This document shows, piece by piece, positions 1 to 31,100 of a DNA stretch of 57,926 bases. Position 1 is the stretch's first letter. Each line of letters opens with the position of its first letter. The stretch comes from a virus. The notes under the pieces are model-generated. The model saw only the letters and a list, made by a program, of their open reading frames with translations, did not search any database and was not told the DNA's origin. Position numbers and translations under genes: made by a program. Location: IMG/VR virus record IMGVR_UViG_3300029305_004519, positions 77,541 through 135,466 of that record; one strand, written 5' to 3'.

Positions 1-227
1 TTATAGGCAGGGGAACCGCTTTTGGAAAGCCATGATATAATGCCTATGCGAAAGCCTTTGCGTTGCAAGTTATTCAATCTCTTGGCAAGAGCTGACATAT
101 TTACAAGCGGTCGTGCCTGTTGGTATGGACGAGTGCTAAAATTTTCAAGGTCTGCAAGCCATTGCGGTTGCCCATAGAAATCGGCAATAGTGCCATCCAT
201 GTCAAAGTAAATCGTGCCTTTATTCAT
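1..227 (-). CDS. HAD-superfamily 5'(3')-deoxyribonucleotidase-like protein. The N-terminus is present and the C-terminus runs off the window edge.
   Basis: Minus-strand ATG at 227 with a GAGAGGG Shine-Dalgarno. N-terminus reads MNKGTIYFDMDGTIADFYG, a HAD motif I DxDGT of the NT5C-type nucleotidase family. Confidence 0.55.
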   Translation of the reverse strand, partial: MNKGTIYFDMDGTIADFYGQPQWLADLENFSTRPYQQARPLVNMSALAKRLNNLQRKGFRIGIISWLSKSGSPAY

Positions 228-254
228 TGGTTGTTTCCCTCTCTTTCTGTATAT

Positions 255-283
255 ATTATACCACACTTTTATGGATTTGTCAA
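255..283 (-). promoter_or_regulatory. Sigma-70-type promoter (minus strand TTGACA-17-TATAAT)
   Basis: Plus tgtcaa at 278-283 and attata at 255-260 with a 17-bp spacer. It lies upstream of the nucleotidase gene. Confidence 0.7.
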
Positions 284-2839: not shown

Positions 2840-3142
2840 TTAATGGCTGAAGTGTTTCAACACGTCTTGCGCATCGTACTCATTTTCGTTCTCACTCATA
2901 ATTATAATTTTATTTTCCCATTCAGCAGGAATGCTTAAAATTTTAAGTGTTTCCTTTAAGAATGAAATCATATCCGAACAATCATTTTTTTGATTGTCAG
3001 AAAGAAAGAGAAGGGCGCCCAACTCTTCACAGTAAAGCGCGTGAAGGGGATAGTCTTGCGCCGAGAGGGTTTCCCAATCAAGGGGAGTGAGTGAAGATTC
3101 AAAATGAGTGATTACAAGAGCGTGGCTGAAGTGGTACTTCAT
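2840..3142 (-). CDS. Hypothetical protein (100 aa)
   Basis: ORF track entry. GGAGG Shine-Dalgarno. Its own promoter lies upstream. Confidence 0.55.
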   Translation of the reverse strand: MKYHFSHALVITHFESSLTPLDWETLSAQDYPLHALYCEELGALLFLSDNQKNDCSDMISFLKETLKILSIPAEWENKIIIMSENENEYDAQDVLKHFSH

Positions 3143-3188
3143 ACCGCGTGACCTCCTTGTATCTCTTATTTATTTTTCTTACATATAT

Positions 3189-3217
3189 ATTATATAATAA
3201 ATTTTTTAAAAAGTCAA
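3189..3217 (-). promoter_or_regulatory. Sigma-70-type promoter (TTGACT-17-TATAAT)
   Basis: Plus agtcaa at 3212-3217 and attata at 3189-3194. Confidence 0.65.
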
Positions 3218-3220
3218 AAG

Positions 3221-3240
3221 GCGCAGATTATGCTGCGCCC
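3221..3240 (-). terminator. Rho-independent terminator after the 3244-3447 gene
   Basis: Hairpin GGCGCAG-cataat-CTGCGCC is followed by UUUU on the minus strand. Confidence 0.5.
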
Positions 3241-3243
3241 CGA

Positions 3244-3447
3244 TTATTCATTCCATCGGCAACAGTTGGGGCAATAGTATTGCGTTCCATAACGACCACC
3301 ATTTGGAATTACTTTTTCTTCGCATACTTGACAGTATCCATTATTGAAGCGCTTTTCTGTCAAATGCTCTCCAAGTAAATAGGCGCCATACCAAGATATA
3401 ACTCCTATCACAAGGATTATAACAAGAATAATCCAAGAATGTTTCAT
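3244..3447 (-). CDS. Membrane-anchored zinc-ribbon protein (67 aa; one TM helix, then CQVC...CPNCC)
   Basis: Part of ORF 3244..3531, using the internal Met MKHSWIIL with an AAAGGAAAG Shine-Dalgarno. Confidence 0.5.
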   Translation of the reverse strand: MKHSWIILVIILVIGVISWYGAYLLGEHLTEKRFNNGYCQVCEEKVIPNGGRYGTQYYCPNCCRWNE

Positions 3448-3508
3448 TTTCTTTCCTTTCTGCGCATTTCCAAATTTTTCCAGTGCGCTCTTTTTATGTA
3501 GAGGGAGA

Positions 3509-3928
3509 TTACTCTCCCTCGTCCTCGTCAATCATGCGATCCTCACATTCTTCATTGTCGCATTCATCGCAATTGAAGTCGCACTCATCATCGAGTTCAT
3601 CCTCATCATCATCGAGGAAATAGTTGGGAATGTCGGGGAACTCGCCCGCTTTGTTGGCACGGACATTGTGAACCTTGACCTTATTCGTAAGGTCAGATTT
3701 GGCAAGAGGTTCAAACACATCGATCTTGCGACGGAGAACCGAACCATCGTTGCGGAATACCGATACCTGATAGCCACCCCTGACTTTCAACACATAGGGA
3801 GAAGAAAGTCGGTCTTTTTCGCAGGTATTGAAGCGGATATTTGCATACGCATCTTGCACTGCGGTTTTGAGGTCTGCATAGTCAACTCCCGTACAGATAA
3901 GGCGGTAAACATAGTTTTTCTTTTTCAT
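3509..3928 (-). CDS. Hypothetical protein (139 aa) with an extremely acidic C-terminal tail (DDDEDELDDECDFNCDECDNEECEDRMIDEDEGE)
   Basis: ORF track entry. GAGAGGA Shine-Dalgarno. Candidate DNA-mimic or anti-restriction protein by composition. Confidence 0.6.
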   Translation of the reverse strand: MKKKNYVYRLICTGVDYADLKTAVQDAYANIRFNTCEKDRLSSPYVLKVRGGYQVSVFRNDGSVLRRKIDVFEPLAKSDLTNKVKVHNVRANKAGEFPDIPNYFLDDDEDELDDECDFNCDECDNEECEDRMIDEDEGE

Positions 3929-3964
3929 AATAAAAATCCTCTCTTTTCTTTTGATTACATATAT

Positions 3965-3993
3965 ATTATATCATAAGATATGTACTTTGTCAA
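3965..3993 (-). promoter_or_regulatory. Consensus promoter with a duplicated -35 (TTGACTATTGACA)
   Basis: Plus tgtcaa at 3988-3993 and attata at 3965-3970 with a 17-bp spacer. Confidence 0.7.
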
Positions 3994-4553
3994 TAGTCAA
4001 GTTGCACAAACTTTTGATTATTTATTTGTGCAACTTGACGATGGCGCTTGGCTATTTTGTTAATATAATGCTCTGCATAGTACTTTGCGGCTTGCGCAAT
4101 GTCATTGCAGTTTGCTGATAGTTTTGCTTTACGTATAAGTTCCTCAAACTCATGTTCGGCGCGCCATTCTTGTGCGATAATGTTCTGCTCTTGGGTTACC
4201 TGCTCCCATTTGAGAATCTCAATATCAAATCCATGGTCATTGAAATTATCGACTTTATCTTCAAGGCGGAAGCAATATTGTACCTCTTTGGACATAAGAT
4301 ATGCCCATCCAACAGTGATAGGAATCCATATTAAATCCAACCAAGTGACCGATATTGAGAGGGAAAGTATAAGTCCAACCCCATAAATTACTATCATTGC
4401 TACGAAAAGCCAGCAACTCAAATAATATTTGATACTCATGTTTAATTCTTTTTCTGTCATGGGGCGCTCATGAGTGATTTCTTTATAGTCAAACTCATTG
4501 GTTTTGGTATTGAATGTTGGGTAGTACATTGTGCGCTTTACTGTTTTAGCCAT
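3990..4553 (-). CDS. Membrane protein (187 aa; two central TM helices, C-terminal coiled-coil-like region)
   Basis: ORF track entry. GAGAGGAATA Shine-Dalgarno. Confidence 0.6.
   Translation of the reverse strand: MAKTVKRTMYYPTFNTKTNEFDYKEITHERPMTEKELNMSIKYYLSCWLFVAMIVIYGVGLILSLSISVTWLDLIWIPITVGWAYLMSKEVQYCFRLEDKVDNFNDHGFDIEILKWEQVTQEQNIIAQEWRAEHEFEELIRKAKLSANCNDIAQAAKYYAEHYINKIAKRHRQVAQINNQKFVQLDY
3996..4039. repeat. Perfect 15-bp inverted repeat GTCAAGTTGCACAAA / TTTGTGCAACTTGAC separated by 14 bp
   Basis: Its arms contain the conserved promoter-upstream element TTTGTGCAA in both orientations. It lies inside the 3' end of the 3990-4553 CDS. Confidence 0.5.
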
Positions 4554-4584
4554 TGTATATTCCTCTCTTTTCTTTGGTATCTAT

Positions 4585-4613
4585 ATTATATCATATTTAT
4601 CGGGAAAAGTCAA
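4585..4613 (-). promoter_or_regulatory. Sigma-70-type promoter (TTGACT-17-TATAAT)
   Basis: Plus agtcaa at 4608-4613 and attata at 4585-4590. It shares an extended ~45-bp homology with the 8578-8606 promoter (gtcaatgaataaaYtgtaa). Confidence 0.7.
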
Positions 4614-4668
4614 TGAATAAACTGTAAACTAAATGTAAACAAAAAATGAATGAGAGGTAGGGCTTGCG

Positions 4669-4702
4669 CATAAATCGGCTCGACGCGCCCCACGTCGAGC
4701 CG
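4669..4702 (-). terminator. Rho-independent terminator
   Basis: A 10-bp GC stem CGGCTCGACG-loop-CGTCGAGCCG is followed by AUUUAUG on the minus strand. Confidence 0.6.
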
Positions 4703-4726
4703 CTGAAAAATTGAAGGGCGAGTTTT

Positions 4727-5216
4727 CACTCACCCTTGATAGGTCTGCCGAGAATATCGTGATAATCGTAGTAGCGATACATCGACCACACTTTTTCATC
4801 TTTGACTTTGGAACCATCATACACTACAAGAGTGCCAAGGAAGATGCCACCCAGCCGCTCAATCTCTTCTTTGACAACTGCCACGGTTTTACCGCTGAAA
4901 TAGCTATCATCAATGAAAAGAAATTCGCGCCCTTGATGCGATTTTGGAATGGTTCAAGATTGATTTTAGATGGGTCATGGCGAAAACCACCCGGAACGAG
5001 CAGGTCAATTTCAATACCAAGGTTATGCATAGACAACCCAATCTCACCGCTTGCAATGGTTAGCGCATTATATGCAAGTATATGCGATTTTGCAATGAGG
5101 TCTTGCAGAATTTCATAATCAAACTTGACCGCTTTATCAAGTTCCGAAAAGAAGATTTGACCACCGATGAATTTTTCTAAAAGTTCATTTACAGTTTCAA
5201 AAATTTTATTTTTCAT
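4727..5216 (-). pseudogene. Phosphoribosyltransferase-domain gene disrupted by a -1 frameshift (or a sequencing error) near 4925-4935
   Basis: Frame A (ORF 4824..5216) encodes the N-terminal part. The -1 frame continues with a PRPP-binding motif FLFIDDSYFSGKTVAVVKEEIERLGG...PIKGE and stops at about 4727. The join lies within aatttcttttcattg. Confidence 0.5.
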
Positions 5217-5220
5217 TTCG

Positions 5221-5559
5221 TTATACCCCCAAACTGATTGCTATTGCTTTATCAACTTCCCACATTTGTTTACTATTTGCGATGCCGACAAAGGTTTTTA
5301 GTCTGCGCTTGTCAAGGGTTCGCATTTGCTCACATTCGACCATGCTCTCCTTGCATAAACCGCAAGAGGTATCGAGTAATACCTGTGTTGGCAGACGGAA
5401 TTTATGCGTGCGACTGGTGATGGCCGCCGCAATGACGATAGGCGCGCGTCTGTTGCCTATATCATTAGATACAATCAACACTGGGCGCAAACCGCCTTGC
5501 TCACTGCCGACTACTGGTGAAAGGTCTGCGTAATAAATTTGTCCTCTTTTGATTTCCAT
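5221..5559 (-). CDS. mazF: MazF/PemK/EndoA-family toxin endoribonuclease (112 aa)
   Basis: RGQIYYADLSPVVGSEQGGLRPVLIVSNDIGNRRAPIVIAAAITS...ECEQMRTLDKRRL closely parallels Bacillus EndoA/NdoA and E. coli MazF motifs. AAGGGGG Shine-Dalgarno. Confidence 0.85.
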   Translation of the reverse strand: MEIKRGQIYYADLSPVVGSEQGGLRPVLIVSNDIGNRRAPIVIAAAITSRTHKFRLPTQVLLDTSCGLCKESMVECEQMRTLDKRRLKTFVGIANSKQMWEVDKAIAISLGV

Positions 5560-5572
5560 ATGTACCCCCTTG

Positions 5573-5594
5573 GGTAGAGCCTTACGGCTCTACC
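5573..5594 (-). other. Perfect 9-bp intercistronic hairpin (GGTAGAGCC-ttac-GGCTCTACC) with the upstream gene's stop codon in its loop
   Basis: It lies between the 69-aa gene and the mazF ribosome-binding site. No U-run follows, so it is probably not a terminator. Confidence 0.5.
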
Positions 5595-5791
5595 TCTATA
5601 ACCTCAATGCTTTGTTTTACTACGAACTCCCCGCAAATTTCGCCCGTAAAATTGTTGACGATAATAACATTGGTTTCTTTGTTGATTGCCATGCCATTAG
5701 CAAAATACTTTGCATGGTTAAGGTCATCAAAATCCGCAATGTGCTTGCATTCGCAATACACTCCATAGTCGAGAATGTCAAATCTAATCAT
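5582..5791 (-). CDS. Hypothetical 69-aa protein upstream of mazF (candidate non-canonical antitoxin)
   Basis: ORF track entry. AAAGGAAAGG Shine-Dalgarno. It has no recognisable MazE/AbrB or RHH signature. Confidence 0.5.
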   Translation of the reverse strand: MIRFDILDYGVYCECKHIADFDDLNHAKYFANGMAINKETNVIIVNNFTGEICGEFVVKQSIEVIEVEP

Positions 5792-5827
5792 AAGTTTATA
5801 CCTTTCCTTTCTTTTGTTTACATATAT

Positions 5828-5856
5828 ATTATATCATATTGATTGCCGTTTGTCAA
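5828..5856 (-). promoter_or_regulatory. Consensus promoter (TTGACA-17-TATAAT) with the upstream TTGACTATTGACA / TTTGTGCAA element
   Basis: Plus tgtcaa at 5851-5856 and attata at 5828-5833. Confidence 0.7.
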
Positions 5857-5888
5857 TAGTCAATTTGCACAAAGTTTTTGGGTGGGAC

Positions 5889-6200
5889 TTATGCACAATA
5901 CACAAGCCCCATATCGCGCCAGCGGAGAACAGAGATTTGATTACAAGCGCGCCCAACTTCAAGGGCTTCATGCTTTGTTGCTACTCTATGCGATAAGTCG
6001 ATATAGTAGATGCCAGCGCTGAACCAAATACCGCAGTTACCGCCATATGCCTTGACCGCGTTAATGGCTTCGCGGGGGTCGGTGGTTTCAATGCCCTCTG
6101 TTGCGACTTGATACCCAGACTTGTAAATGATGCGCTTACCGCCTTTAAGGGTCATTCCGTCATTATCTTTCAGATTGCGAATGGAGCGAATGTTGATCAT
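5889..6200 (-). CDS. Hypothetical protein (103 aa)
   Basis: ORF track entry. AAAGGAAAGG Shine-Dalgarno. Confidence 0.55.
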   Translation of the reverse strand: MINIRSIRNLKDNDGMTLKGGKRIIYKSGYQVATEGIETTDPREAINAVKAYGGNCGIWFSAGIYYIDLSHRVATKHEALEVGRACNQISVLRWRDMGLVYCA

Positions 6201-6233
6201 AATATGTATTTTCCTTTCCTTTATTGTATCTAT

Positions 6234-6262
6234 ATTATATCATAAAAGCGGGAAAATGTCAA
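6234..6262 (-). promoter_or_regulatory. Consensus promoter
   Basis: Plus tgtcaa at 6257-6262 and attata at 6234-6239 with a 17-bp spacer. Confidence 0.7.
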
Positions 6263-6323
6263 TAGTCAAATGTAACAAAGTTTTGGAGAAAAAAAGATGG
6301 TGATTTGTACAGATTGCACAAAA

Positions 6324-6380
6324 CGGCTCGCGGCGGAGGATCGCGAGCCGGGCAAAGAAAAAAGGTGCCTGTTGGCACCT
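6324..6380 (-). terminator. Tandem rho-independent terminators after the 6380-6565 gene
   Basis: Hairpin CGGCTCGCG-loop-CGCGAGCCG is followed by UUUUGUG. Hairpin GGTGCC-aaca-GGCACC is followed by UUUUUUCUUUG on the minus strand. Confidence 0.65.
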
Positions 6381-6565
6381 TAATCAATGATGAGGATATT
6401 CTCTTGCGGGAGCCCGAGGGAGATTGCATACCAAAGGGCATCGTCTACACTCTCGCAATCTTTTAGTTTAATTATTTTGAATTCATTTCTGACACGACAT
6501 TCATAGTTAGTTTTGTCAGTAATGCACCATCCATAGAAAAAATCTTTCCATAAAATATATTGCAT
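6380..6565 (-). CDS. Hypothetical protein (61 aa)
   Basis: ORF track entry. AGGGGGTAG Shine-Dalgarno. Confidence 0.5.
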   Translation of the reverse strand: MQYILWKDFFYGWCITDKTNYECRVRNEFKIIKLKDCESVDDALWYAISLGLPQENILIID

Positions 6566-6579
6566 TTTTCTACCCCCTA

Positions 6580-6816
6580 TCAGTAAGTGTCATAGCCGAG
6601 GCAATCGCCTTCGGCATCGGTAATAAGAGCAACGAAACAAGCGTATTCAAAGTTTTCATCAGCGGTTGCTTGGCAACGAGTGATGAAATCTTCCATTTCT
6701 TCGCCTTCTTCCTTTTTCCATTCTACAAGGAAAATTTCACCGCTTTCCCTGTCATAGAATTTGGCGTCAAGCCATTCGCCAACTTTTGTCTGTTCCCAAA
6801 TCTGTTCGTTTGTCAT
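6580..6816 (-). CDS. Highly acidic small protein (78 aa; 22 D/E residues against 4 K/R)
   Basis: ORF track entry. AGAGAGG Shine-Dalgarno. Candidate DNA mimic by composition only. Confidence 0.55.
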   Translation of the reverse strand: MTNEQIWEQTKVGEWLDAKFYDRESGEIFLVEWKKEEGEEMEDFITRCQATADENFEYACFVALITDAEGDCLGYDTY

Positions 6817-6860
6817 TTGTGTTTACCTCTCTTTTATGTATTTGTCCTTTTGACACTCTT

Positions 6861-6889
6861 ATTATATCATAAATAAATGTATTTGTCAA
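6861..6889 (-). promoter_or_regulatory. Consensus promoter
   Basis: Plus tgtcaa at 6884-6889 and attata at 6861-6866. Confidence 0.7.
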
Positions 6890-6922
6890 GTATTTTTGCA
6901 AAGTTTTTTTGAAATATCGAAC

Positions 6923-7043
6923 AAGTTTACAAAATGTTCATAATTTAACAGCAGGTCTTAAACTACTGCTTTTACGGGTAACAAAATAGAAATGAATGGT
7001 TCATAATTTTGCGTATAAAAGTTTACAAACTGTTCACAAAATG
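6923..7043. repeat. Three iteron/operator-like repeats (GTTTACAAAATGTTCATAATTT, ATGGTTCATAATTTTG, GTTTACAAACTGTTCACAAAATG) upstream of the 6861-6889 promoter
   Basis: Direct reading gives a shared core TTTACAAnnTGTTCAyAA. Related copies lie at 8655-8715 upstream of another promoter. Confidence 0.5.
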
Positions 7044-7045
7044 CA

Positions 7046-7081
7046 AAAAGCGCGCCGCCCCGGGTGTCAGCGGCGCGGCGA
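7046..7081 (-). terminator. GC-rich terminator hairpin after the 7100-7384 gene
   Basis: GCGCGCCGC-loop-GCGGCGCGG is followed by CUUUUUGCAUUUU on the minus strand. Confidence 0.5.
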
Positions 7082-7099
7082 TGGAAAGAGGACTGCTTG

Positions 7100-7384
7100 T
7101 TAGCAGTCCCCTGTGTAGCAACCCATGTAAGGGTCAAAGCCAGTTTCATCGACGTCAGGCTCATAGTCCTCATCTTCCTCGTCCCAATCCTCATTGTAGT
7201 AGAGGCTTTCGGTGCCGTGGTGGTAGATGATTTGCGCCATAGGGGTAGCCTCGTCTTTGGTGAGGTGGTCATCTGCGACAAGGTCAACCAACCGCGCGAT
7301 TGCAATGGTATGGGGGTCTTCAAGCCCGAACTCCGAGCAGGCGAGGTTGTGGCAGTTGATGAGCGAAAGTTTGGTGTAATCCAT
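7100..7384 (-). CDS. Hypothetical protein (94 aa) with an acidic C-terminus; paralog of the 8116-8316 protein
   Basis: ORF track entry. AAAGGAGAA Shine-Dalgarno. Shares the motif ACxxxGLEDxHTIAIA with the 8116-8316 product. Confidence 0.55.
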   Translation of the reverse strand: MDYTKLSLINCHNLACSEFGLEDPHTIAIARLVDLVADDHLTKDEATPMAQIIYHHGTESLYYNEDWDEEDEDYEPDVDETGFDPYMGCYTGDC

Positions 7385-7387
7385 GGT

Positions 7388-7645
7388 AGTTCTCCTTTAT
7401 GTAGATTGAATTGGCTCTGCTCCGTCCATCCGAGGCGGTCGGCTCCTATGAGCGGACTGTGCCATCCTCGGCATCTTTGCCCTACTTGGTTTATATAGCG
7501 ATGGGCGTCTAACACGGTCTTTGCTGACCTCTGACTGCGCTCTGCGGAGAGCGGGCTCTTTACACCGCTTGCAAGGGTACTCGTTTCTTCAAGTTGTGGC
7601 TAAACTCGGTTGGTAGCGCTCCCAACGGCTTTCCCCTTGACACCT
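7388..7645 (-). ncRNA. Long (~250 nt) GC-rich untranslated leader or candidate structured RNA between the promoter and the 7100-7384 gene
   Basis: No ribosome-binding-site-preceded ORF. Several internal complementary segments such as CCGAGG/CCTCGG. The track ORFs here (6958..7515, 7064..7498) lack Shine-Dalgarno sites and look like compositional artefacts. Confidence 0.25.
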
Positions 7646-7647
7646 AT

Positions 7648-7676
7648 ATTATATCACACTTTCGGGCAAAAGTCAA
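7648..7676 (-). promoter_or_regulatory. Sigma-70-type promoter (TTGACT-17-TATAAT)
   Basis: Plus agtcaa at 7671-7676 and attata at 7648-7653. Confidence 0.7.
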
Positions 7677-7736
7677 TAGGTAATATTGCACAAACTTTTG
7701 GCGCCAAATTTGTGCATCTTGCACAAGAAGGCAAAA

Positions 7737-7800
7737 TCGTCGCGCCACGACCGCTGGCGCGACGGCGAAGGGAAAGAGGGCTTTTCAGCCCTCTCTTTGT
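7737..7800 (-). terminator. Tandem terminator hairpins after the 7785-8081 gene
   Basis: AGAGGGC-loop-GCCCTCT at about 7776-7797 and GTCGCGCCA-loop-TGGCGCGAC at about 7741-7767 are followed by GAUUUUGCC. Confidence 0.55.
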
Positions 7801-8081
7801 TTCAATGCGCGATAAGCATCGCGCTCTTCTTTGGTATCAAACCATGTCTTTTCGCCGTACATCCAAATCATATCAACGGAGTCGACACAGTGCACAAGAG
7901 CGAAGCCTTTATGCGCTTGTTGATGTGTGGCTCTAATGGCATATGGGCTACCATTCAAGCGTGCGGTTGAAACGCTCTCTCTGGTAGTTGCAATTTGATA
8001 TTCTTCAATAAAAGCAGGCGTTGCAAGAAAGGGACGTTTTACGCCAAGGACTTTGTAAAGCTCTCTAATAGAATGTTTCAT
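7785..8081 (-). CDS. Hypothetical protein (98 aa)
   Basis: ORF track entry. AGGAGGA Shine-Dalgarno. Confidence 0.55.
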   Translation of the reverse strand: MKHSIRELYKVLGVKRPFLATPAFIEEYQIATTRESVSTARLNGSPYAIRATHQQAHKGFALVHCVDSVDMIWMYGEKTWFDTKEERDAYRALKQREG

Positions 8082-8115
8082 GATATATCCTCCTGTTCGA
8101 TGGGGTAGAGGACTA

Positions 8116-8316
8116 TTAGTCCTCTACCATATGGTATGCGCCGATTGCTTGCATATAGATCGCACGACAGACCATTGCCGCATCCCAACATTTGGCGCCG
8201 CCGGCTTCATGCATTTCTACAATTCCGGCTATTGCAATGGTGTGCTTATCCTCAAGCCCAAGGTCAGTGCAGGCTTTATCCAGCCACTGCCGAGGAGTCA
8301 TGAAATAGTTGCTCAT
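8116..8316 (-). CDS. Hypothetical protein (66 aa); paralog of the 7100-7384 protein
   Basis: ORF track entry. GGAGGTG Shine-Dalgarno. Carries the GLEDKHTIAIA motif. Confidence 0.55.
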   Translation of the reverse strand: MSNYFMTPRQWLDKACTDLGLEDKHTIAIAGIVEMHEAGGAKCWDAAMVCRAIYMQAIGAYHMVED

Positions 8317-8328
8317 ATGCCCACCTCC

Positions 8329-8520
8329 TTATGCGCCGAGGGCTCTAAAACGGAGCCCTTCATATGTGCCGTGATAAAAGCGCCACTTGCCTGCGCCGTA
8401 GCCATAACGAACATTCCAACGCGTATTGCGTGTAACGTGACGGCGGAGCGCATTGCCCGTCATAGAGCCAAGGACTTCGCCTGTCTCAAGATTATAAGCC
8501 CAGTGTTTGCAGTTAGTCAT
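8329..8520 (-). CDS. Basic small protein (63 aa)
   Basis: ORF track entry. GGAGGT Shine-Dalgarno. Confidence 0.5.
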   Translation of the reverse strand: MTNCKHWAYNLETGEVLGSMTGNALRRHVTRNTRWNVRYGYGAGKWRFYHGTYEGLRFRALGA

Positions 8521-8577
8521 AATAGACCTCCAAGTATGTATTCAGAGGGGGAGCGTCCTCCGCCCTTCTGTGTCTAT

Positions 8578-8606
8578 ATTATATCACATAAAGGCGCAAA
8601 AGTCAA
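8578..8606 (-). promoter_or_regulatory. Sigma-70-type promoter (TTGACT-17-TATAAT)
   Basis: Plus agtcaa at 8601-8606 and attata at 8578-8583. Confidence 0.7.
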
Positions 8607-8654
8607 TGAATAAATTGTAACTTATATATGAATATTTTATGAACTTTGCGGGAC

Positions 8655-8715
8655 GGGAAGTGTTCACATTTGGTTCAAACAACTGAAACAAAAAATTTAC
8701 AATTTGTTAACAAAT
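8655..8715. repeat. Operator-like repeats related to the 6923-7043 set (GTGTTCACATTTGGTTCAAACAA, TTTACAATTTGTTAACAAATC)
   Basis: Same TTTACAA..TGTT.A.AA core, found upstream of a different early promoter. Confidence 0.4.
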
Positions 8716-8721
8716 CTTAAA

Positions 8722-8800
8722 AGCGGCGCGTCGCGGGGGATGACGCGCCGGCCGGCACTTCAAGAAGGCGCAACCCTATGACCGGGCGCGCCTTCTTCGC
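8722..8800 (-). terminator. GC-rich terminator hairpin(s) after the 8815-8964 gene
   Basis: GGCGCGTC-loop-GACGCGCC is followed by UUUUAAGAUUU. A second hairpin GAAGGCGC-loop-GCGCCTTC follows. Confidence 0.5.
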
Positions 8801-8814
8801 TGATATGGGATGCC

Positions 8815-8964
8815 TTATACTATACACACATAGGTTCCGGCTCTTGTCCCTTCAGCCTGATACACTTCGGTAATATCAATATTACCGCTATTGCTGTCAA
8901 ATACCCGGATGGGCATATTCTCGTCATATTGGTTAAGCAATTCTTTCAACTCTTTTATAGTCAT
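8815..8964 (-). CDS. Hypothetical 49-aa protein
   Basis: Part of ORF 8815..9006, using the internal Met MTIKEL with a GGAGGGAG Shine-Dalgarno. Confidence 0.4.
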   Translation of the reverse strand: MTIKELKELLNQYDENMPIRVFDSNSGNIDITEVYQAEGTRAGTYVCIV

Positions 8965-8981
8965 GATATAACTCCCTCCTA

Positions 8982-9146
8982 TTAATCGCGGTCTTTCTTC
9001 TTCCAAATCCCTATGAGGATTGAAATCTCATTGCAAATAGTTACAAATACCGCAACCAATGCAATCATAAGTGGGGTAACATTAAACATGCCACTGCTAT
9101 ACATTAAAAGCAGAATAGTCAACCCTATCAAATACATTCTTTCCAT
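8982..9146 (-). CDS. Hypothetical 54-aa membrane peptide (two hydrophobic segments)
   Basis: AAGAGG Shine-Dalgarno. Its start overlaps the upstream stop (TAATG). Below the track cutoff. Confidence 0.35.
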   Translation of the reverse strand: MERMYLIGLTILLLMYSSGMFNVTPLMIALVAVFVTICNEISILIGIWKKKDRD

Positions 9147-9418
9147 TATGCCCAACCTCTTTCTTTCTTAATTTGCTCATATCGAGCTTTATTCTCTGCC
9201 TCAATGCGCGCCTTATCATAGACGCGCGCCTTGATTTGAGTATATCCATATTTACGCATGTCGCGCACTGTCATATGACGTTTTGCTAACATCTTCGTGA
9301 CAGCCTTTTGTTGATATGCGACTTTATTCGCCATATAGTCTACCCATGACGCAACTTCTATCAATTCGGAAAGCGGTCTATAACCGCTTTCCGATATAAT
9401 GGTGACTTGAATCTGCAT
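9146..9418 (-). CDS. Hypothetical protein (90 aa)
   Basis: ORF track 9146..9421 trimmed to its ATG. AGAGGTAAT Shine-Dalgarno. TGATG overlap with the Lar gene. Confidence 0.55.
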   Translation of the reverse strand: MQIQVTIISESGYRPLSELIEVASWVDYMANKVAYQQKAVTKMLAKRHMTVRDMRKYGYTQIKARVYDKARIEAENKARYEQIKKERGWA

Positions 9419-9630
9419 CACATTACCTCTATACTTTCATTGTTCCATGCTTCAATGGCGAGGTCTACGGTATAGCCGGTTTTGCCTGCCGCTTCACAAG
9501 TGGGGCATTGCATAAAATAACCCTCATCCCAACCGGCAAACTCCCGGTTGATTCTATGCAATTGAGTTTTACAGTAGGGGCAGGGGCGGATATAATCCGC
9601 CTGCCCTTTTTCGATTGCTTTAATTTTCAT
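9418..9630 (-). CDS. lar: Lar-family restriction alleviation protein (70 aa zinc ribbon)
   Basis: CPYCKT...CPTCEAAG...AIEAWN matches the Lar family pattern CPxC..C..C with AIEAWN. Confidence 0.7.
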   Translation of the reverse strand: MKIKAIEKGQADYIRPCPYCKTQLHRINREFAGWDEGYFMQCPTCEAAGKTGYTVDLAIEAWNNESIEVM

Positions 9631-9824
9631 TTATTTAATTCTCCTTTCGCTAATGCCAAAGTATAGGCGTGATAATCATCGCAAAATTTTTCAATCGAAA
9701 GAATTTCGCAATCCTGTTCGATAATATGTGCCAATGCGGTATGCATGCCGCCGCCCGATACAGTATAACTATCACATGGAGTGGTAATTCGATAACCTGC
9801 TTTTTCTTCATATCTTGTAAACAT
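9627..9824 (-). CDS. Hypothetical protein (65 aa)
   Basis: ORF track entry. GAAAGGAAGG Shine-Dalgarno. Confidence 0.5.
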   Translation of the reverse strand: MFTRYEEKAGYRITTPCDSYTVSGGGMHTALAHIIEQDCEILSIEKFCDDYHAYTLALAKGELNK

Positions 9825-9846
9825 ATAAATACCTTCCTTTCTATGT

Positions 9847-9867
9847 GGGGTAGGTTTAACCTACCCC
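9847..9867 (-). other. Perfect 10-bp hairpin (GGGGTAGGTT-t-AACCTACCCC) with the stop codon of the 9856-10107 gene in its loop, just upstream of the next ribosome-binding site
   Basis: Same arrangement as the hairpin at 5573-5594. Confidence 0.4.
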
Positions 9868-10107
9868 GTTTATTTTCATGGCGTCAAGCATCTCGCCCGC
9901 GCCCTGTTCGACTTCTTCCGCCAATGCGGTGAAAAAATCATCTTCCGATTCTTCCACCACGGGAGCGGTAACAAGCTCCACATGAGAGCTAACGAAAAAC
10001 AATTCGTTTACCTCTTGAATTGTTTCACCATTTACTAAAATGGTTTTGTGGGGGTCGCATTTTTGCAATTCTTGAATAAGTTGAGAAACAGACATTGACA
10101 TGATTTT
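9856..10107 (-). CDS. Hypothetical acidic protein (83 aa)
   Basis: ORF track 9856..10119 trimmed to Met MSMSVSQ with an AAAGGAA Shine-Dalgarno. Confidence 0.5.
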   Translation of the reverse strand, partial: KIMSMSVSQLIQELQKCDPHKTILVNGETIQEVNELFFVSSHVELVTAPVVEESEDDFFTALAEEVEQGAGEMLDAMKINGVG

Positions 10108-10138
10108 GATTCCTTTCATATGTAAAAAATTTTTTTGA

Positions 10139-10240
10139 TTAATTGAACAGACAACCCAACAGATGAACGACTAAACCGAACAGACAAACACCAATAAATG
10201 CGCCAATAGATAAGAGTACTAAAAGCAATTCAAGTGGCAT
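10139..10240 (-). CDS. Hypothetical 33-aa hydrophobic peptide (MPLELLLVLLSIGAFIGVCLFGLVVHLLGCLFN)
   Basis: GGAAGTG Shine-Dalgarno. It is the first gene after the leftward divergent promoter. Confidence 0.3.
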   Translation of the reverse strand: MPLELLLVLLSIGAFIGVCLFGLVVHLLGCLFN

Positions 10241-10293
10241 TTTTTTCACTTCCTTTCAATTTGATTTTTTGCCGTGTTTACCACCGCAAGACT

Positions 10294-10322
10294 ATTTTAC
10301 CACAAAGCCAAGCATTTGTCAA
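10294..10322 (-). promoter_or_regulatory. Leftward promoter of the divergent control region (TTGACA-17-TAAAAT with an extended TG)
   Basis: Plus tgtcaa at 10317-10322 and atttta at 10294-10299. The TTGCACAAA element is inverted-repeated at about 10336 and about 10373. Confidence 0.6.
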
Positions 10323-10547
10323 CACTTTTTTCATTGTCATTTTGCACAAATTTTTTGGGGGTTTGAGAATTTTTTTTGTGCAAACTACACACAATTATAA
10401 GAGGTATTTTTGGGATTTTGAAATTTCTATTTTCTTCCAAAGCCTTTCCTACGGCAATTCACTCCTAGAAAATTCATTTCATTTCAAAAGACGAACAGGA
10501 TTTTTATAGCTCTCTCTCCAAACCAATAATCCAACGAAAAATTATCA

Positions 10548-13042: not shown

Positions 13043-14788
13043 ATGGCACTACAAGATTTACTAGACCTTTCTCTTGATCGAAATTAGTAGAAAATTGGAT
13101 TATCCGAAGAACGCGTGAAGGCGCAGATTCCTATCGTGCGCCAGTATGTTGCCTATTGGCGCGAGTACCCTGATATGTTCGTAGAGTTTCTATGTGGACC
13201 TAATCCTGAAAATTTTTCGCTTTTCTTTTATTAGCGCTTGTTTTTACGTGCAGTAATGCGCCATAGATATGCCTATGCAACATTTCCTCGTGCCTATTCA
13301 AAGAGCTTTTTATCTGTCCTAGTATTAATGCTAAGATGTATTCTTTACCCAGGCAGTCATTTATTCGTAACCACAGGCGGAAAAGAACAGGCGGCGGGTA
13401 TTGCTAAAGAAAAATCAGACGAGCTTTGTAAGCTTATACCTGGCTTACGCAATGAGCTCGATATGACAAGAGGAAAAACTAAAACTAGTAAAGATAATAT
13501 TGAATTGATCTTTAAAAATGGTTCAAAATTAGACATTATGGCGGCGCGCCAGTCTTCTCGTGGTAAGCGTGCAACCGGTGGATTGATGGAAGAATGTATA
13601 TTAATTGATCAAACGCTGCTGAATGAAGTGATAATTCCTACAATGAATGTAGACCGAAGATTATCAGACGGCTCCCGAGTAGAAGAAGAAACTGTTAATA
13701 AATCGTAGATTTATGTTACTACTGCGGGGTGGAAGAATAGTTTTGCTTATGAAAAGCTTATAGAGCTTCTTATTCGTCAAATTATCTACCCTGATGAAGC
13801 TATTGTTATGGGTGGAACCTGGCGTATTCCTGTTATGGAAAAGTTGCTTAAAAAAAGTTTTATAGAAGAGCTTAAGCTTGATGGTACTTACAATGACGCG
13901 TCTTTTAGTCGAGAATATGAATCAGAATGGTCTGGAGATGCAGAAAATGCATTTTTCTCTGCGGAGAAATTTGACAAACATCGTTAGTTGCTATAGCCTG
14001 AATATGAGTATTCTGGACGCACGTCTAAAAATGGATATTACGTACTTGGCGTCGACGTAGGTAGATTAAAATGTACTACTGAAGTTTGTGTCTTTAAAGT
14101 CACCCCTTAGGCGCAGGGCGCCGCTCTAAAATCTTTAGTCAATATTTATACTTATGAAGCTGAAGATTTTGAAGCACAAGCCATTAAAATTAAGCGCTTG
14201 TTCTATAAATACAAAGCGCGGGTTATTGCCATTGACGCAAATGGTTTAGGAGTAGGTTTAATCGACTTTATGACGAAAGGACAAGAAGATCCAGAAACTG
14301 GAGAATATCTATCTCCTTTTGGCATAGAAGGCGGAACTTCTGATGAATTTAATGAGCAATATAAAAAGATAAAAGGGCCTGGAGTAGAAGAAAATGCTAT
14401 GTATTTAATTAAGGCTAACGCGCCAATCAATACAGAAGCTCATACTTATGTTCAAACGCAATTAGTTGGTGGAAAAATTAAATTATTAATTGATGAAACA
14501 TAGGCTAAAACAAAATTAATGACCACTAAAATGGGTCAAGAAATGGATGCATCTAAACGAGCAGAATATTTGAAACCTTTTACTTTAACTACCATTTTAC
14601 GAGAATAGCTATTAAATTTGGTAGAAGATAACGAAGGAGTAAATATTATTTTAAAACAATCCTCTCGTAGCATTCCTAAAGATAAATTTTCTGCTTTTGA
14701 GTATGGACTATATTATATTAAACAAGAAGAAGATCGTAGTAGAAAACGTAAAAAGAGAAATATATCTGAGATGATGTTTTTCTCTTAA
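13043..14788 (+). CDS. terL: Terminase large subunit (581 codons; two consecutive TAG near the N-terminus and at least 7 TAG in total)
   Basis: Motifs YVTTAGWKNSFAYEK and ARVIAIDANGLGVGLIDF (RNaseH-like nuclease domain). Frame 2 is continuous to TAA 14786-14788. Confidence 0.8.
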
Positions 14789-15261: not shown

Positions 15262-16878
15262 GTGCTTAGCTTGAGTAATAGTAGAATAGAAGAGATTCAT
15301 AGCAAAGGCTTTGATATAAGCACCCCGAAACGTATTCCAACTGAAGGAAACATTATTCCAGAAATGGATTATTCAAAAATAAAAGTAGGAATTAAGCATC
15401 TTGATGATGCAATTATTAATTTAGGTTCCTATAAGAAGCTTAACCCTAGAATGACCAAAGAAAATATTCAACGGGCAATCTCCACTGGAGATGTAGATTT
15501 TATGAGAGAAGCTTCTGAATTTTATTTTAAGGTTAGCGGAATCTATTCAAGATTGTGCAAACACCTAGCTAATTTTTATAGATACGATTGGTTTATTACT
15601 CCTTTTACCCCATCTGATAAAGTCACTCCTGACAAAATCATAGATGGTTTTAATAAGAGCTCGCAGTATATAGATACTTTCGGCGCCAAGGAATACTTTG
15701 GCGAAACGGCACTCAAGGTAATGCGCCAAGGCTGCTATTATGGGTATATTATCCGTGATACAGATACCGCGCAAGTCCAAGAGCTGCCGCCGAAATACTG
15801 CCGCTCTAGATATAGTGTAAAAGGGCGCCCAGCGGTCGAATTTAATATGAAGTTTTTTAATGACTTATATAAAAATGAAGATCAGCGTATTCGTGTTTTA
15901 AAAATGTTTCCAAGAGATTTTCAAAAAGGCTATCTTGCTTTTACAAGAGGCGAGTTATTGCCTGAATTCCCTGGGGATACTGCGGGATGGTATTTACTAG
16001 ACCCAGAGTGTACAATTAAGTTTAATATAAATGGTGAAGATACTCCACCTTTTGTGTCAGTTATTCCTCATATTATTGATTTAGATGCGGCACAAGAGTT
16101 GGATAGAAAAAAGATGGCGCAAAAGCTATTGAAAATTATTATTCAAAAAATGCCATTGGATAAGAATGGCGATTTAATATTTGATGTAGATGAAGCGCAA
16201 GAACTTCACAATAATGCAGTTAGAATGCTTGGAAAAGCAATCGGCATTGATGTATTAACTACTTTTGCAGAAGTAGAAGTTGCAGATATGGCCGATAAAA
16301 ATTCTGTAGCTAGCATCGATGAGTTAGAAAAGGTTGAAAGAACCGTTTATAATGAATCTGGTACTGCATAGAACTTATTTAACACAGATGGTAATATTGC
16401 TCTTGAAAAGAGTATTCTTGATGACGAAGCGAATGTATATAACCTTGTACTTCAATTTTAGTCATTTTTAAATTATCTTATCAAACCTTTCAATAAAAAT
16501 CCAAAAAAGTTGTATTATAAAGTAGAAATACTTCCTACAACAATTTATAATTACAAAGATATGTCAAAATTATATAGAGAGTAGGGCGCGACTGCAGGCT
16601 CAAAGTTACTTGCAAGCGTTGCTCTTGGGCAATCTCAAGCTTCTGTTTTAGCAACAGCAAGATTTGAGAACGATATTTTAGATGTATCTGATCTTTTCCA
16701 ATCAAAACAACAACGAGAAGAAGCTAAAGCAAAATAGCAAACTTCAAATAATGTCAATCCTGCAGGAGCTCAAAAAAAGCAAGAAGAGGTAATTGACAAA
16801 AAAAAGGTTGGAAGACAAGAGAAACCAGATGATCAAAAAAGCGAAAAAACAATTCGTAATCGTGAAGCTATGAATTAA
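15262..16878 (+). CDS. Putative portal protein (538 codons; TAGs cluster in the C-terminal quarter)
   Basis: Position after terL and size. Track ORF 15262..16371 continues in frame through TAG codons to TAA 16876-16878. Confidence 0.5.
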
Positions 16879-28182: not shown

Positions 28183-31100
28183 ATGGCTAATAATTAGGGA
28201 AGAATCAATTTTGGCATTGGTTTTAATGTTGATAAAACTGGCTTAAATGAACTTCGCGCCCAACTTCAGTCATTGCAGAATCTATCTACTAAAGATTTGG
28301 TGAATATATCTAATGCTAAACAGGCAGAAGACACTTTAAAAAGTATCACTGACACTGCGCAGAAGGTATAGGCAGCATTAGAGTCAAGTTTTAATGTTAA
28401 ATTAAATTCAACTGATTTAAATAAATTCCAATAGTCATTAAATGCGGCTGGATTAAATTTAAAGACTATTGAAGCTGAATTTGCAAAAGCTGGTGTTCAA
28501 GGCCAAAATGCGTTTCGTAATATCACAACTGAATTATTAACAACTAATAGATATATTAAATAGACTAGCAAATGGCTTGATAAAATGGTCGAGACAATGG
28601 GGAATACTGTTAGATGGTCTATTTCATCTAGCGCCTTAAATGCTATTACTGGTTCCGTTCAAAAAGCTTATAGTTATACTAAAAAACTTGATCAATCTTT
28701 AAATGATATCGTTATAGTTACAGGTAAGAGCTCAGATGAAATGGCGCGCTTCGCTAGAGAGGCGAATAATGCGGCCAAGCAGTTAGGCGCCACTACAACT
28801 GACTACACGCAAGCTGCGCTGATTTATTACCAATAGGGTTTATCAGACCAAGATGTACGCGCTCGTTCAGAAGTTACAACTAAGGTTGCAAATGTTACTG
28901 GAACAAGTGCGCAAGTAGCATCTGAACAATTAACTGCTATTTGGAATGGTTATAAAGTATCTGCGCAAGAAGCAGAGGCATATATTGATAAGGTTTCTGC
29001 TGTTGCCGCAACTACCGCTGCAGACTTAGAGGAACTTTCTGTTGGTATGTCTAAGGTAGCATCTGCCGCTAATATTATGGGTGTAGATATTGACCAATTA
29101 AATGCACAATTAGCTACTATTGTATCTGTTACGCGTGAGGCGCCTGAGTCTATTGGTACTGCATTAAAGACTGTTTATGCTCGTATGAGTGATATTGAAG
29201 CGGGGCTCGATACCGAAACTACTCTTGGTGAATATACTGCGCAAATGGCAGAAATGGGTATTAATGCTTTAGATGCAAACGGTAATTTGCGTGATATGGG
29301 TGAAGTTGTAGAAGAAATTGGTAATAAGTGGAATACTTTAAATCGTAATCAACAAACTGCATTAGCTCAAACTATTGCTGGTACTCGTCAATACTCGCGT
29401 ATGATGGCATTGTTCGATAACTGGACAATGTATGAGAAAGCATTAAGCACTTCCGCAAATGCTATGGGTACTTTAAATGAGCAAAATGACCGTTATTTAA
29501 ACTCAATGGAAGCTCATTTGAATAAATTAACAGCTGCTTCTGAGGGATTGTATGATAGCTTATTAGATCCAGAGAGCTTAAATGGTTTAATTGATGGTTT
29601 AACAACTGTTGTTACTTTGATTGACTAGATGGTATAGGGTCTTGGAGGTGGCGGCAATGTTTTAATGAATTTTGGCGCTATCGCTCTATAGGTATTTAAT
29701 CAATAGATTTCTAGAGGAATTTCCAATGTTATTAGAAATGCAAAAGGTTTAAAAGATAATTTAAAATAGGCAGCGGCAGAGGCTGAATTAATTGCACAAA
29801 TGGAAGAGTTGCAAGATGATAAGATGAAGCCTATTATTGAAGCTTATAAGGAAATGAATAGTCTTAGACATTTAATGACTGAGGCAGAAGAAAAAGAATT
29901 TAACCTTTTATAGAAAAAACGTACTGAATTGGTTAATGAGAATGCTCTACTAGAAAATCGTAAAAGTTTGATTGAAAAAATGTATCTTCTTTAGACTAAA
30001 GAGAAAAATATAGATATATCTAAAGTAAAAGATGCTGACAAAGTGCAAGGTGCACTTTTAGATTTTGCTTCGGGTGGTTTAAGCGATGTTGGAGAAGATT
30101 TATTAGAAGATGCTTTAAACATTTCAAACTTATCATAGGAAGTTTCTTCGGCAGCGGCATCTGCGCGAGGTAAACGAGCTTGGACAACACGGCTTCAAAG
30201 CATAGAAGGCAAATCAATGTTGTATGGAGAACAATCAACCTCTTGGTCTGATAAAACTTAGGCAGCAATTGATAAAGCCTTGGAGGCAGAAAAATATGCA
30301 CGAGAGTTACAAGAAGAATTATCTGCTTCTTTTGAAAGTAATATTCAAAAATAGAAGAAAGCATTTGATGAAATGGCAGACAATGCTAAATGGCTGTCAG
30401 AACTAGGTCTTTTTAATGATGAAGATGTAAAATAGTTAAAAGAGATTCAGCACACTTTTAATAATTTAACTGAAAAGGATGCAAAAAAATTACCTGAGTT
30501 ATTAAATGCTTATCAAAAATATGTTGAATCAGCTAGAAAAGCTGCGGGCGCCAATGCCGATTTTGCAAAAAAATATTAGGCAGAGTATGATAAACTTAAG
30601 ACAGCAGCTGAAAATGCTACCTTAGCAACCGATAAATTTTTAAAAAGTTTTGACACGGCTAAGGCTGTTGGGGCAATTACTAATCTTGCAGGAGGCATTT
30701 CTGGTCTTGCTTCTGGCATGACTACTTTAAGTAATATTGGTAGTATTTGGGATGATGATAATTTAAGTGGTTGGGAAAAAATGCTTCAAATTACTACTAA
30801 TTTAAGCATGTCTTTACCAATATTGTTTAATAGTATTTCTTCTATCAAAAAAGGAATGATAGAATTTAAAGATGTTACAAAAACAATTGCTAACACTTGG
30901 AATAAATTTAAAACAGACTAGGCCAAAGCTTAGGCTGCTAGTATTATCATGGCTAAAAAAGAAGAATTAGCGCAAGATAAAGTAACTAAGTCAGCATTAG
31001 AGTAGGCTTTTGGCAATAAAGTATTGGAAGAGGCAATAGAAGAAGTAATAGAGGATAAAGAAAGATTAAATAATGAAACACTTGAAGAAATTCTAAATTC

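Follow-up and report, generated by a model that had tools for sequence, protein, structure and literature searches.

The stretch analysed here (the window) comprises 57,926 nucleotides (nt) of the IMG/VR virus record IMGVR_UViG_3300029305_004519. Towards its left end lie four small genes on the minus strand, at 3509-3928, 6580-6816, 7100-7384 and 9418-9630, which an original prediction had grouped as an anti-restriction theme made up of a Lar-family protein and three highly acidic proteins, the latter as candidate DNA mimics. All four open reading frames (ORFs) are present with the peptides quoted for them, and they have Shine-Dalgarno sites, TAA or TGA stops and no in-frame TAG. The product of 3509-3928 has 33 acidic residues (D/E) in 139 amino acids (aa) and a net charge of -13. 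The product of 6580-6816 has 21 in 78 aa (27%, where about 28% had been given) and 6 K/R, with a net charge of -15 and an isoelectric point (pI) of 4.05, and that of 7100-7384 has 24 in 94 aa (26%) and 3 K/R, with a net charge of -21 and again a pI of 4.05. The 37 late proteins of the window contain on average 13.7% D/E (standard deviation 2.6, maximum 19.7), and measured against them the three proteins are the most acidic of the window. The acidic C-termini that had been quoted are only partly correct: the 139-aa protein does end in DDDEDELDDECDFNCDECDNEECEDRMIDEDEGE, but NEDWDEEDEDYEPDVDE is not the C-terminus of the 94-aa protein. There, NEDWDEEDEDYEPDVDE is followed by TGFDPYMGCYTGDC, and it is TGFDPYMGCYTGDC that forms the most conserved part of the protein.

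A large protein database contained 129 homologues of the 78-aa protein, 172 of the 94-aa protein and 19 of the 139-aa protein (59-100% identity). All are metagenomic and of conserved length, and they lack Pfam domains and informative names. For the three acidic proteins, tblastn against cultured-phage records (E<=1) gave no match, scans with Pfam, PHROG and NCBIfam gave no informative family, and comparison of their family profiles with all PDB sequences gave only noise. A mutual relationship was considered and rejected, as the hhalign probability between the families was at most 1%. Judged by these comparisons, the acidic proteins represent three conserved orphan families that are unrelated to each other.

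Architecture of the four proteins

The 94-aa protein (7100-7384) combines an N-terminal 'HTIAIA' domain (residues 1-63; 7196-7384), an acidic linker NEDWDEEDEDYEPDVDET (residues 64-81; 7142-7195) and a conserved C-terminal anchor GFDPYMGCYTGDC (residues 82-94; 7103-7141). The HTIAIA domain has the motif AC..(F/L)GLE..HTIAIA and is predicted to be helical. It is delimited by paralogy with the 66-aa product of 8116-8316 (minus strand; BLASTP 2e-8, 35% identity), which is tail-less and stops where the acidic part would start. A deep search recovered both tailed and tail-less versions of the domain, and P0269 and P0271, close relatives of 8116-8316, are tail-less. The ORF 6958-7515 (185 aa, GTG start), which covers 7100-7384 in another frame, was judged spurious because the 94-aa frame is strongly conserved at the protein level. 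Among the 172 homologues the linker varies in length and sequence while its D/E/W/Y/P composition is kept, and the ending G-F-D/N-P-Y-x-G-C-Y-T/D-x-D-C is almost invariant. A profile search against 1.84 billion cluster representatives returned only 32 proteins, several of which share with the 94-aa protein only the acidic stretch and the ending.

The ending and its stop codon were also searched for as a degenerate DNA pattern in 185,579 GTDB species genomes and IMG/VR, which matched 19 GTDB contigs and 72 IMG/VR viral contigs, many of them 110-200 kb long (91 loci). The GTDB hits are all metagenome-assembled genomes (MAGs), almost all of Clostridia or other Bacillota, and include Lachnospiraceae, Acutalibacteraceae, Faecousia and a sheep-colon Bacilli bin. 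ORFs ending at the anchor sites are 39-164 aa long, and each fetched locus had one such gene. After removal of the last 28 residues, 79 proteins fell into 33 BLAST clusters, including Cys-rich ribbons, the HTIAIA domain and a 130-aa domain, and several proteins of 39-60 aa consist of little beyond linker and ending. Across the module-bearing proteins, the 20 residues before the anchor contain on average 47% D/E (range 30-75%). A sigma-A-like promoter was present within 200 nt upstream of 49% of the tail genes, compared to 17% of all ORFs in the same loci.

Altogether the anchor module was found in 215 distinct proteins with 50 variants of the ending. Position 3 of the anchor covaries with position 10 (D with T or S in 189 proteins, N with D in 22, N with T in 2 and D with D in none), which argues for a folded mini-structure, and the anchor probably folds into a small hairpin-like structure. 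The terminal Asp-Cys is kept across the variants, with the Cys imposed by the search pattern except in the profile hits. No Pfam family covers the tail in ten different tail-bearing proteins, PHROG and NCBIfam scans gave no match to the anchor of 7100-7384, and a full-text literature search with anchor strings matched only a degenerate PCR primer. The possibility that the anchor copies the C-terminus of a host protein was rejected, as the 185,579 species genomes gave only the 19 hits, all of them small phage-like ORFs in Bacillota/Clostridia MAGs. The alignments thus define the linker and the GF(D/N)PYxGCYxxDC end as a portable two-part C-terminal module, described here for the first time, in which the 'polyanion' is the spacer. 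Since proteins of 39-60 aa with only the tail exist, the module appears to be functional on its own.

The 78-aa protein (6580-6816) is uniformly acidic. Its AlphaFold2 model, made from a 34-sequence alignment, is confident (predicted local distance difference test (pLDDT) 89.4, predicted template modelling score 0.78) and shows a helix, two strands, a long helix, a strand and a short helix (alpha-beta-beta-alpha-beta-alpha). The acidic residues are spread over all secondary-structure elements and 11 of the 21 are at least 90% conserved, while the last six residues, LGYDTY, are invariant. Fold searches with the model, among them Foldseek against BFVD at E<=0.001, found nothing significant, and a scan of IMG/VR for the family found one locus, which makes it a narrow family. 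Among these proteins, the 78-aa protein is the best candidate for a structured acidic inhibitor. The model shows it as a small alpha/beta unit of generic type, with no relation to the architectures of Ocr or ArdA.

The 139-aa protein (3509-3928) is split in charge, with a net +8 for residues 1-104 and -21 for residues 105-139. It starts with a basic alpha/beta domain (residues 1-75; 3704-3928) that AlphaFold modelled confidently. A conserved basic segment, KVKxHNVRxNKxGEFP (residues 83-98; 3635-3682), is predicted to be disordered (pLDDT about 40), and the alignment of homologues delimits an acidic tail with DDECDFxCDxCxxxxCEDR (residues 105-139; 3512-3616). The part of low AlphaFold confidence is the most conserved in sequence. 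In the 19 sequences of the family, K83, K85, H87, N88, V89, R90, N92, K93 and G95 are invariant, as are C116, C120, C123 and C128 of the tail (C-x3-C-x2-C-x4-C) with flanking D/E, after which ..DE.EGE follows. In a regular-expression scan of 5,362 ORFs in related loci, the spacing C-x3-C-x2-C-x4/5-C occurred only 8 times; 7 of these matches were located in small proteins, in an acidic C-terminal context and mostly with the form CDGxCxxC. An acidic Cys4 element like the tail of the 139-aa protein (C-D-G-x-C-x-x-C-x4/5-C) occurs in six other small ORFs of related phages, tail-bearing in loci L009, L018 and L085 and others in L028, L050 and L081, and three such elements adjoin the GFDPY anchor directly upstream. 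The IMG/VR scan for the 139-aa family found no locus, so this family is narrow too. The tail is a specific, probably metal-binding, element on a basic protein and not a DNA-like polyanion.

The fourth protein (70 aa; 9418-9630) is encoded by the fourth gene of an operon that starts at a promoter near 10250-10300, and it was called at the same position in five near-identical metagenome contigs. The Lar signature described for it is present, with CPYC at residues 17-20, CPTC at 42-45 and AIEAWN at 58-63. Three profile libraries place it in the Lar/RalR zinc-ribbon superfamily: Pfam PF14354 (E=1.5e-5, 25.6 bits with a cut-off of 28.6, model positions 3-55 of 58), PHROG 599 (E=4.2e-7, near full length) and TIGR03655 (E=1.5e-7, 31.6 bits with a cut-off of 39.6). 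Assignment to Lar therefore holds at the superfamily level, but not at any curated threshold, and the RalR equivalog NF007260 gave 14.4 bits against 113 needed. The E-values and the near-full-length coverage still support distant homology. A sequence search for relatives of solved structure found none. We regard the 70-aa protein, on its profile matches, as a distant Lar/RalR zinc-ribbon superfamily member, and the family name does not fix its function. Restriction alleviation was the activity first assigned to Lar/RalR of the Rac prophage (King and Murray 1995, cited in PMC4041452), but a later study reports the protein to be a DNase toxin, non-specific and Mg/Ca-dependent, that 'does not inhibit restriction modification' (PMC4041452). 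Since the role of the founder is disputed, a Lar-like fold is weak evidence for anti-restriction.

The probable early arm and its genome

The four genes are part of a minus-strand block of about 22 small genes in at least eight short transcription units (2840-10249), the early or 'host-takeover' arm. This arm extends past the left edge of the window and faces the structural module, running away from it. Five near-identical JGI and ENA metagenome contigs have the same gene order, and megablast of 3000-10500 against cultured-phage records gave no match. One intergenic design is repeated along the arm: a GC-rich hairpin with a T-run, then TTGAC(A/T), 17 nt and TGATATAAT. The extended -10 10-mer TGATATAATA occurs 9 times in the window, where 0.71 would be expected. 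Eight of these boxes are on the minus strand between 375 and 8586 (375-384, 3964-3973, 4584-4593, 5827-5836, 6233-6242, 6860-6869, 7647-7656 and 8577-8586), each just 3' of a GC-rich terminator hairpin, and these promoters divide the arm into units of one to few genes. In Gram-positive bacteria, this 10-mer is the extended -10 consensus of housekeeping promoters. All three acidic genes directly follow such a repeated promoter, as first genes of their units: 3509-3928 has an extended -10 element at 3964-3989, 6580-6816 has its own TTGACA-N17-TGATATAAT at 6860-6905, and 7100-7384 has TTGACT-N17-TGATATAAT at 7647-7690, then a 5' leader of about 265 nt.

The leader of 7100-7384 (7385-7650, minus strand) is GC-rich. 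Relatives keep the promoter and the upstream terminator but not the long leader, and because their leaders are only about 45-90 nt, about 200 nt of the leader look like an insertion. A riboswitch or small RNA was considered here and rejected (no Rfam hit, folding z-score 0.08, leader absent from relatives).

The early block contains no TAG sense codons, compared to 131 in ten late genes (about 9,200 codons), which fits the idea, put forward in a preprint, that recoding marks late genes (bioRxiv 10.1101/2021.08.26.457843). The orientation of the block relative to the structural module, the repeated TGATATAATA promoters and the absence of TAG sense codons make an early timing of the four genes a well-founded inference. 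From about 10.6 kb onward, the plus strand can be interpreted only with TAG as a sense codon. In this reading, 47.0 kb are covered by ORFs of at least 200 aa, compared to 12.9 kb in the standard code, and this ORF coverage marks out a code 15-like structural and late module at 10646-57926. With TAG as sense, the plus strand encodes the large terminase (TerL; 13043-14788), a probable portal (15364-16878), a tape-measure protein of 2,896 aa with 62 in-frame TAG codons (28183-36873) and fibre-like proteins. A search of the window for tRNA genes found none, hence no suppressor tRNA.

Translated with TAG as Gln, TerL aligns over its full length with terminases of Enterococcus, Geobacillus and Alicyclobacillus phages, and it is 42% identical to that of the human-gut phage phAss-1 (OQ749652) and 71% identical to a sequence on an unannotated human faecal contig. 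Published data describe phAss-1 as a TAG-recoded siphovirus of 136 kb whose tape measure has 3,149 aa and whose predicted host belongs to the Eubacteriales (PMC10607447). Besides TerL, the phage studied here shares with the phAss-1 group a genome of about 135 kb, a tape measure of around 3,000 aa, TAG recoding of the structural genes and a predicted host among the Clostridia. It is a phAss-1-like, TAG-recoded siphovirus of about 135 kb, and its host range is probably gut Clostridia. The early arm is not common to both, since tblastn of the three acidic proteins against the collection that includes phAss-1 found nothing.

Scans of ten other early proteins with Pfam, PHROG and NCBIfam were informative only for a full-length MazF/PemK-type toxin (5221-5559, minus strand; Pfam E=4.7e-31). 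An acidic orphan of 69 aa (5582-5791, minus strand; pI 4.45) is encoded 22 nt before it, in the usual antitoxin position, and from this arrangement the two may be a toxin-antitoxin pair carried by the phage, or an RNase for host shutoff together with the protein that neutralises it. Nearby, the TAG stop of 4824-5216 (minus strand) is followed in the same frame, beyond an intergenic terminator and promoter, by 3990-4553; a public gene call (locus L003, 7150-8376) joins the counterparts of both into one 408-aa product. Reading through this TAG late in infection might produce such a fusion. At the window edge, the truncated ORF 1-266 (minus strand) encodes a HAD-like protein with the motif FDMDGTIADFYG, from which it is possibly a deoxyribonucleotidase. 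Of the 91 loci fetched for the tail motif, 35 contain a homologue of this protein, and these phages therefore have more of the early arm in common than just the tail gene. In the late region, a 202-aa ORF (51254-51862, plus strand) has weak N-terminal matches to Hint and homing-endonuclease-associated Hint domains (E about 5e-4, below the cut-off) and may represent an intein-like or Hint-domain element.

Candidate functions

We propose that the four proteins are unrelated small early host-takeover effectors that act through stoichiometric protein binding and do not form a coherent anti-restriction set. This is the reading towards which we lean, with lower confidence in its details. The early arm would be transcribed by the host RNA polymerase. 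The 78-aa protein would then most likely inhibit a host protein stoichiometrically, by covering a basic surface on it that probably binds nucleic acids. In the 94-aa protein, the anchor would dock on one conserved host (or phage) partner and so provide specificity, while the acidic spacer would contribute electrostatic steering or occupy an adjacent groove; many phages of the same host range attach spacer and anchor to unrelated domains or express the unit almost alone. The tail of the 139-aa protein most likely forms a small metal-binding knuckle, which may fold back on the basic part or compete with it, and the 70-aa protein would be a divergent Lar/RalR-type zinc ribbon, separate from the acidic proteins. 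The protein-binding mode, the metal binding and every target are inferred. Small acidic inhibitors of DNA-binding host proteins are found in Firmicute phages, as exemplified by p56 of phi29 and Ugi of PBS2, which act on uracil-DNA glycosylase, and by Gp46 of SPO1, which acts on HU. By analogy, a role of this type is most likely for the 78-aa protein. Going by Bacillus phage proteins, RNA polymerase, nucleoid proteins, repair enzymes and recombination nucleases are targets equally plausible to restriction enzymes.

Several points weigh against this proposal. 'Host-takeover effector' names a class and not a function that has been demonstrated, the early timing is taken from promoters and codon usage, and genuine mimicry of DNA, directed against defence systems, would account for the acidic surfaces just as well. 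The pLDDT is near 40 for the Cys4 tail, so the knuckle is a reading of its sequence. The covariation counts of the anchor are not phylogenetically independent, and its Cys8 is replaced by A, S, G or Y in 7 of the 50 variants, which weakens a model in which two cysteines form a metal site. Most of the sample was collected with a search pattern that required the terminal Cys; only the 32 profile hits were free of this constraint, and the majority of them have DC at the end as well.

The original anti-restriction idea, in which at least one acidic protein imitates DNA and thereby blocks restriction-modification, BREX or another DNA-targeting defence of this kind, forming a set with the Lar-like protein, seems unlikely to us, although it is not without basis. 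Of the 116 residues of Ocr, 34 are acidic and 6 basic (PMC4872106), and the acidic to basic ratios of 21/6 in 78 aa and 24/3 in 94 aa come close to this. Such extreme acidity (about 29% D/E and few K/R in Ocr) is seen in the overall composition of the 78- and 94-aa proteins, but only in the tail of the 139-aa protein. Moreover, the genes are directly behind strong early promoters, which is the usual place of anti-defence genes, a Lar-superfamily gene is in the same arm, and the 78-aa protein is compact, with acidic residues on all its secondary-structure elements. The resemblance to Ocr, however, ends with composition. The acidic proteins have no family, profile or PDB match: the profile of the Ocr family gave none, the 139- and 78-aa proteins had no Pfam hit at E<=1, the only Pfam hit of the 94-aa protein was an irrelevant match to Las1 (E=0.19), and no anti-restriction PHROG appeared at E<=0.1. 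Neither a sequence-profile nor a fold match to ArdA (PF07275) was found, nor an Ocr-type elongated helical fold with carboxylates imitating bent B-DNA. Structure prediction, which had been suggested as a check, gave an alpha/beta fold for the 78-aa protein instead of an elongated helical one. In the 139-aa protein, which is otherwise basic, only a Cys4 motif carries the negative charge, and the acidic run of the 94-aa protein is a length-variable spacer, which makes the fixed phosphate-like spacing of a structured mimic unlikely. The Lar-like gene adds little given the dispute over Lar itself, and among the ten other early proteins that were scanned none supports an anti-restriction theme. Composition alone ties the acidic proteins to anti-restriction, for which they are legitimate but unproven candidates, and it is one of several equally plausible host-takeover roles.

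A bolder version of the docking idea, which we consider quite unlikely, takes the module as a new autonomous inhibitor or docking unit of gut-Clostridia phages. Here the target would be a single host enzyme acting on nucleic acids, or a defence nuclease. The folded anchor, ending in Asp-Cys, would block a conserved pocket of this target, which is possibly a metal site, and the disordered polyanion would serve as a flexible DNA mimic in the adjacent DNA-binding groove, a 'warhead' fused to interchangeable small domains for further targets or made nearly alone. It is very unlikely, in our opinion, that the acidic regions are only solubility-enhancing or autoinhibitory tails (entropic spacers), with function residing solely in the HTIAIA domain, the basic domain and the zinc ribbon. 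The variable linker of the 94-aa protein, the disorder of the tails in AlphaFold predictions and the +8 domain and -21 tail of the 139-aa protein would agree with such inert tails, and the charge layout of the 139-aa protein is that of self-masking nucleic-acid-binding proteins, such as T7 gp2.5 and HMGB1. However, tail-only proteins of 39-60 aa point to a function of linker and anchor on their own, linker acidity is kept in at least 33 N-terminal domain contexts (mean 47% D/E, minimum 30%), and the 78-aa protein is acidic throughout a folded domain, with 11 of its 21 acidic residues at least 90% conserved. Hardly credible is a last explanation, in which the Cys-containing acidic C-termini are core peptides of a ribosomally synthesised and post-translationally modified peptide (RiPP) or a cofactor, and the variable N-terminal part is a leader. 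Reminiscent of RiPP precursors are the C-x3-C-x2-C spacing of the 139-aa protein and the short proteins in which a variable acidic N-terminal part precedes an extreme C-terminus that is conserved and rich in Cys and Tyr. Yet many N-terminal parts look like independent folded domains, one of them with a tail-less paralogue, and the genes are single, each behind its own promoter, and not in biosynthetic clusters. RiPP precursors were dropped as no radical-SAM, LanD-type or YcaO maturase was seen by eye among the 25 most widely shared neighbour clusters of the 91 loci, which were not scanned against family libraries.

Many anti-defence and host-shutoff factors have come from small acidic early proteins, but to our knowledge hardly any has been described from phages whose hosts are strictly anaerobic gut Clostridia. 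The Lar superfamily, of which the 70-aa protein is a new distant member, and acidic early proteins as such are known kinds. By sequence comparison, the three orphan families are new, and so, above all, is the linker-anchor module of many gut-Clostridia phages, which matched no database or literature searched. A guess from composition is hereby narrowed to three concrete, conserved and architecturally distinct experimental targets. While the original anti-restriction theme is largely unsupported, the portable tag is a concrete lead that can be tested; it occurs on at least 33 different N-terminal domains and in more than 200 distinct small proteins. If one partner binds this tag, a host hub attacked by a whole group of phages would be identified, together with a sequence signature for early effector genes in metagenomic phage genomes. 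If the proteins are ordinary orphans, they caution that a 'Lar-like' label and high acidity do not make an anti-restriction module.

Comparison with known systems

The 70-aa protein resembles Lar/RalR of the E. coli Rac prophage in size (about 64-70 aa), in its two CxxC pairs and in the C-terminal A-x-x-A-W-N. Unlike Rac Lar/RalR, it scores below every curated cut-off, and the probable host here is a Gram-positive anaerobe and not E. coli with EcoKI. A counterpart of the antisense RNA RalA was not found, although no search aimed at it was made.

The acidic proteins are like Ocr (T7 gp0.3) and ArdA, structured DNA mimics that inhibit Type I restriction-modification and BREX, in being small and probably early-expressed, with 26-27% D/E and very few basic residues, but they lack sequence or fold similarity to them. 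Ocr and ArdA are elongated helical dimers, whereas the 78-aa alpha/beta unit is the only fully acidic folded domain here, and the 139- and 94-aa proteins hold their charge in Cys-rich or disordered tails. Another parallel is offered by p56, Ugi and Gp46, which are likewise small acidic early proteins of Gram-positive phages and hit targets other than restriction; the acidic proteins described here differ from these in having no homology to any PDB sequence.

For the tail of the 94-aa protein, there is a functional analogy with the acidic C-terminal tips of bacterial SSB (...DDDIPF) and T7 gp2.5, which are docking elements for partner proteins and also combine a disordered acidic stretch with a short conserved free C-terminal tip. 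The tip of the 94-aa protein is different in that it has 13 residues with Gly, Pro, Tyr and Cys and ends in Asp-Cys instead of Pro-Phe. Unlike the SSB tail, the module is joined to dozens of unrelated small domains and not to an OB fold, and its tip shows an internal covariation, which suggests that it folds.

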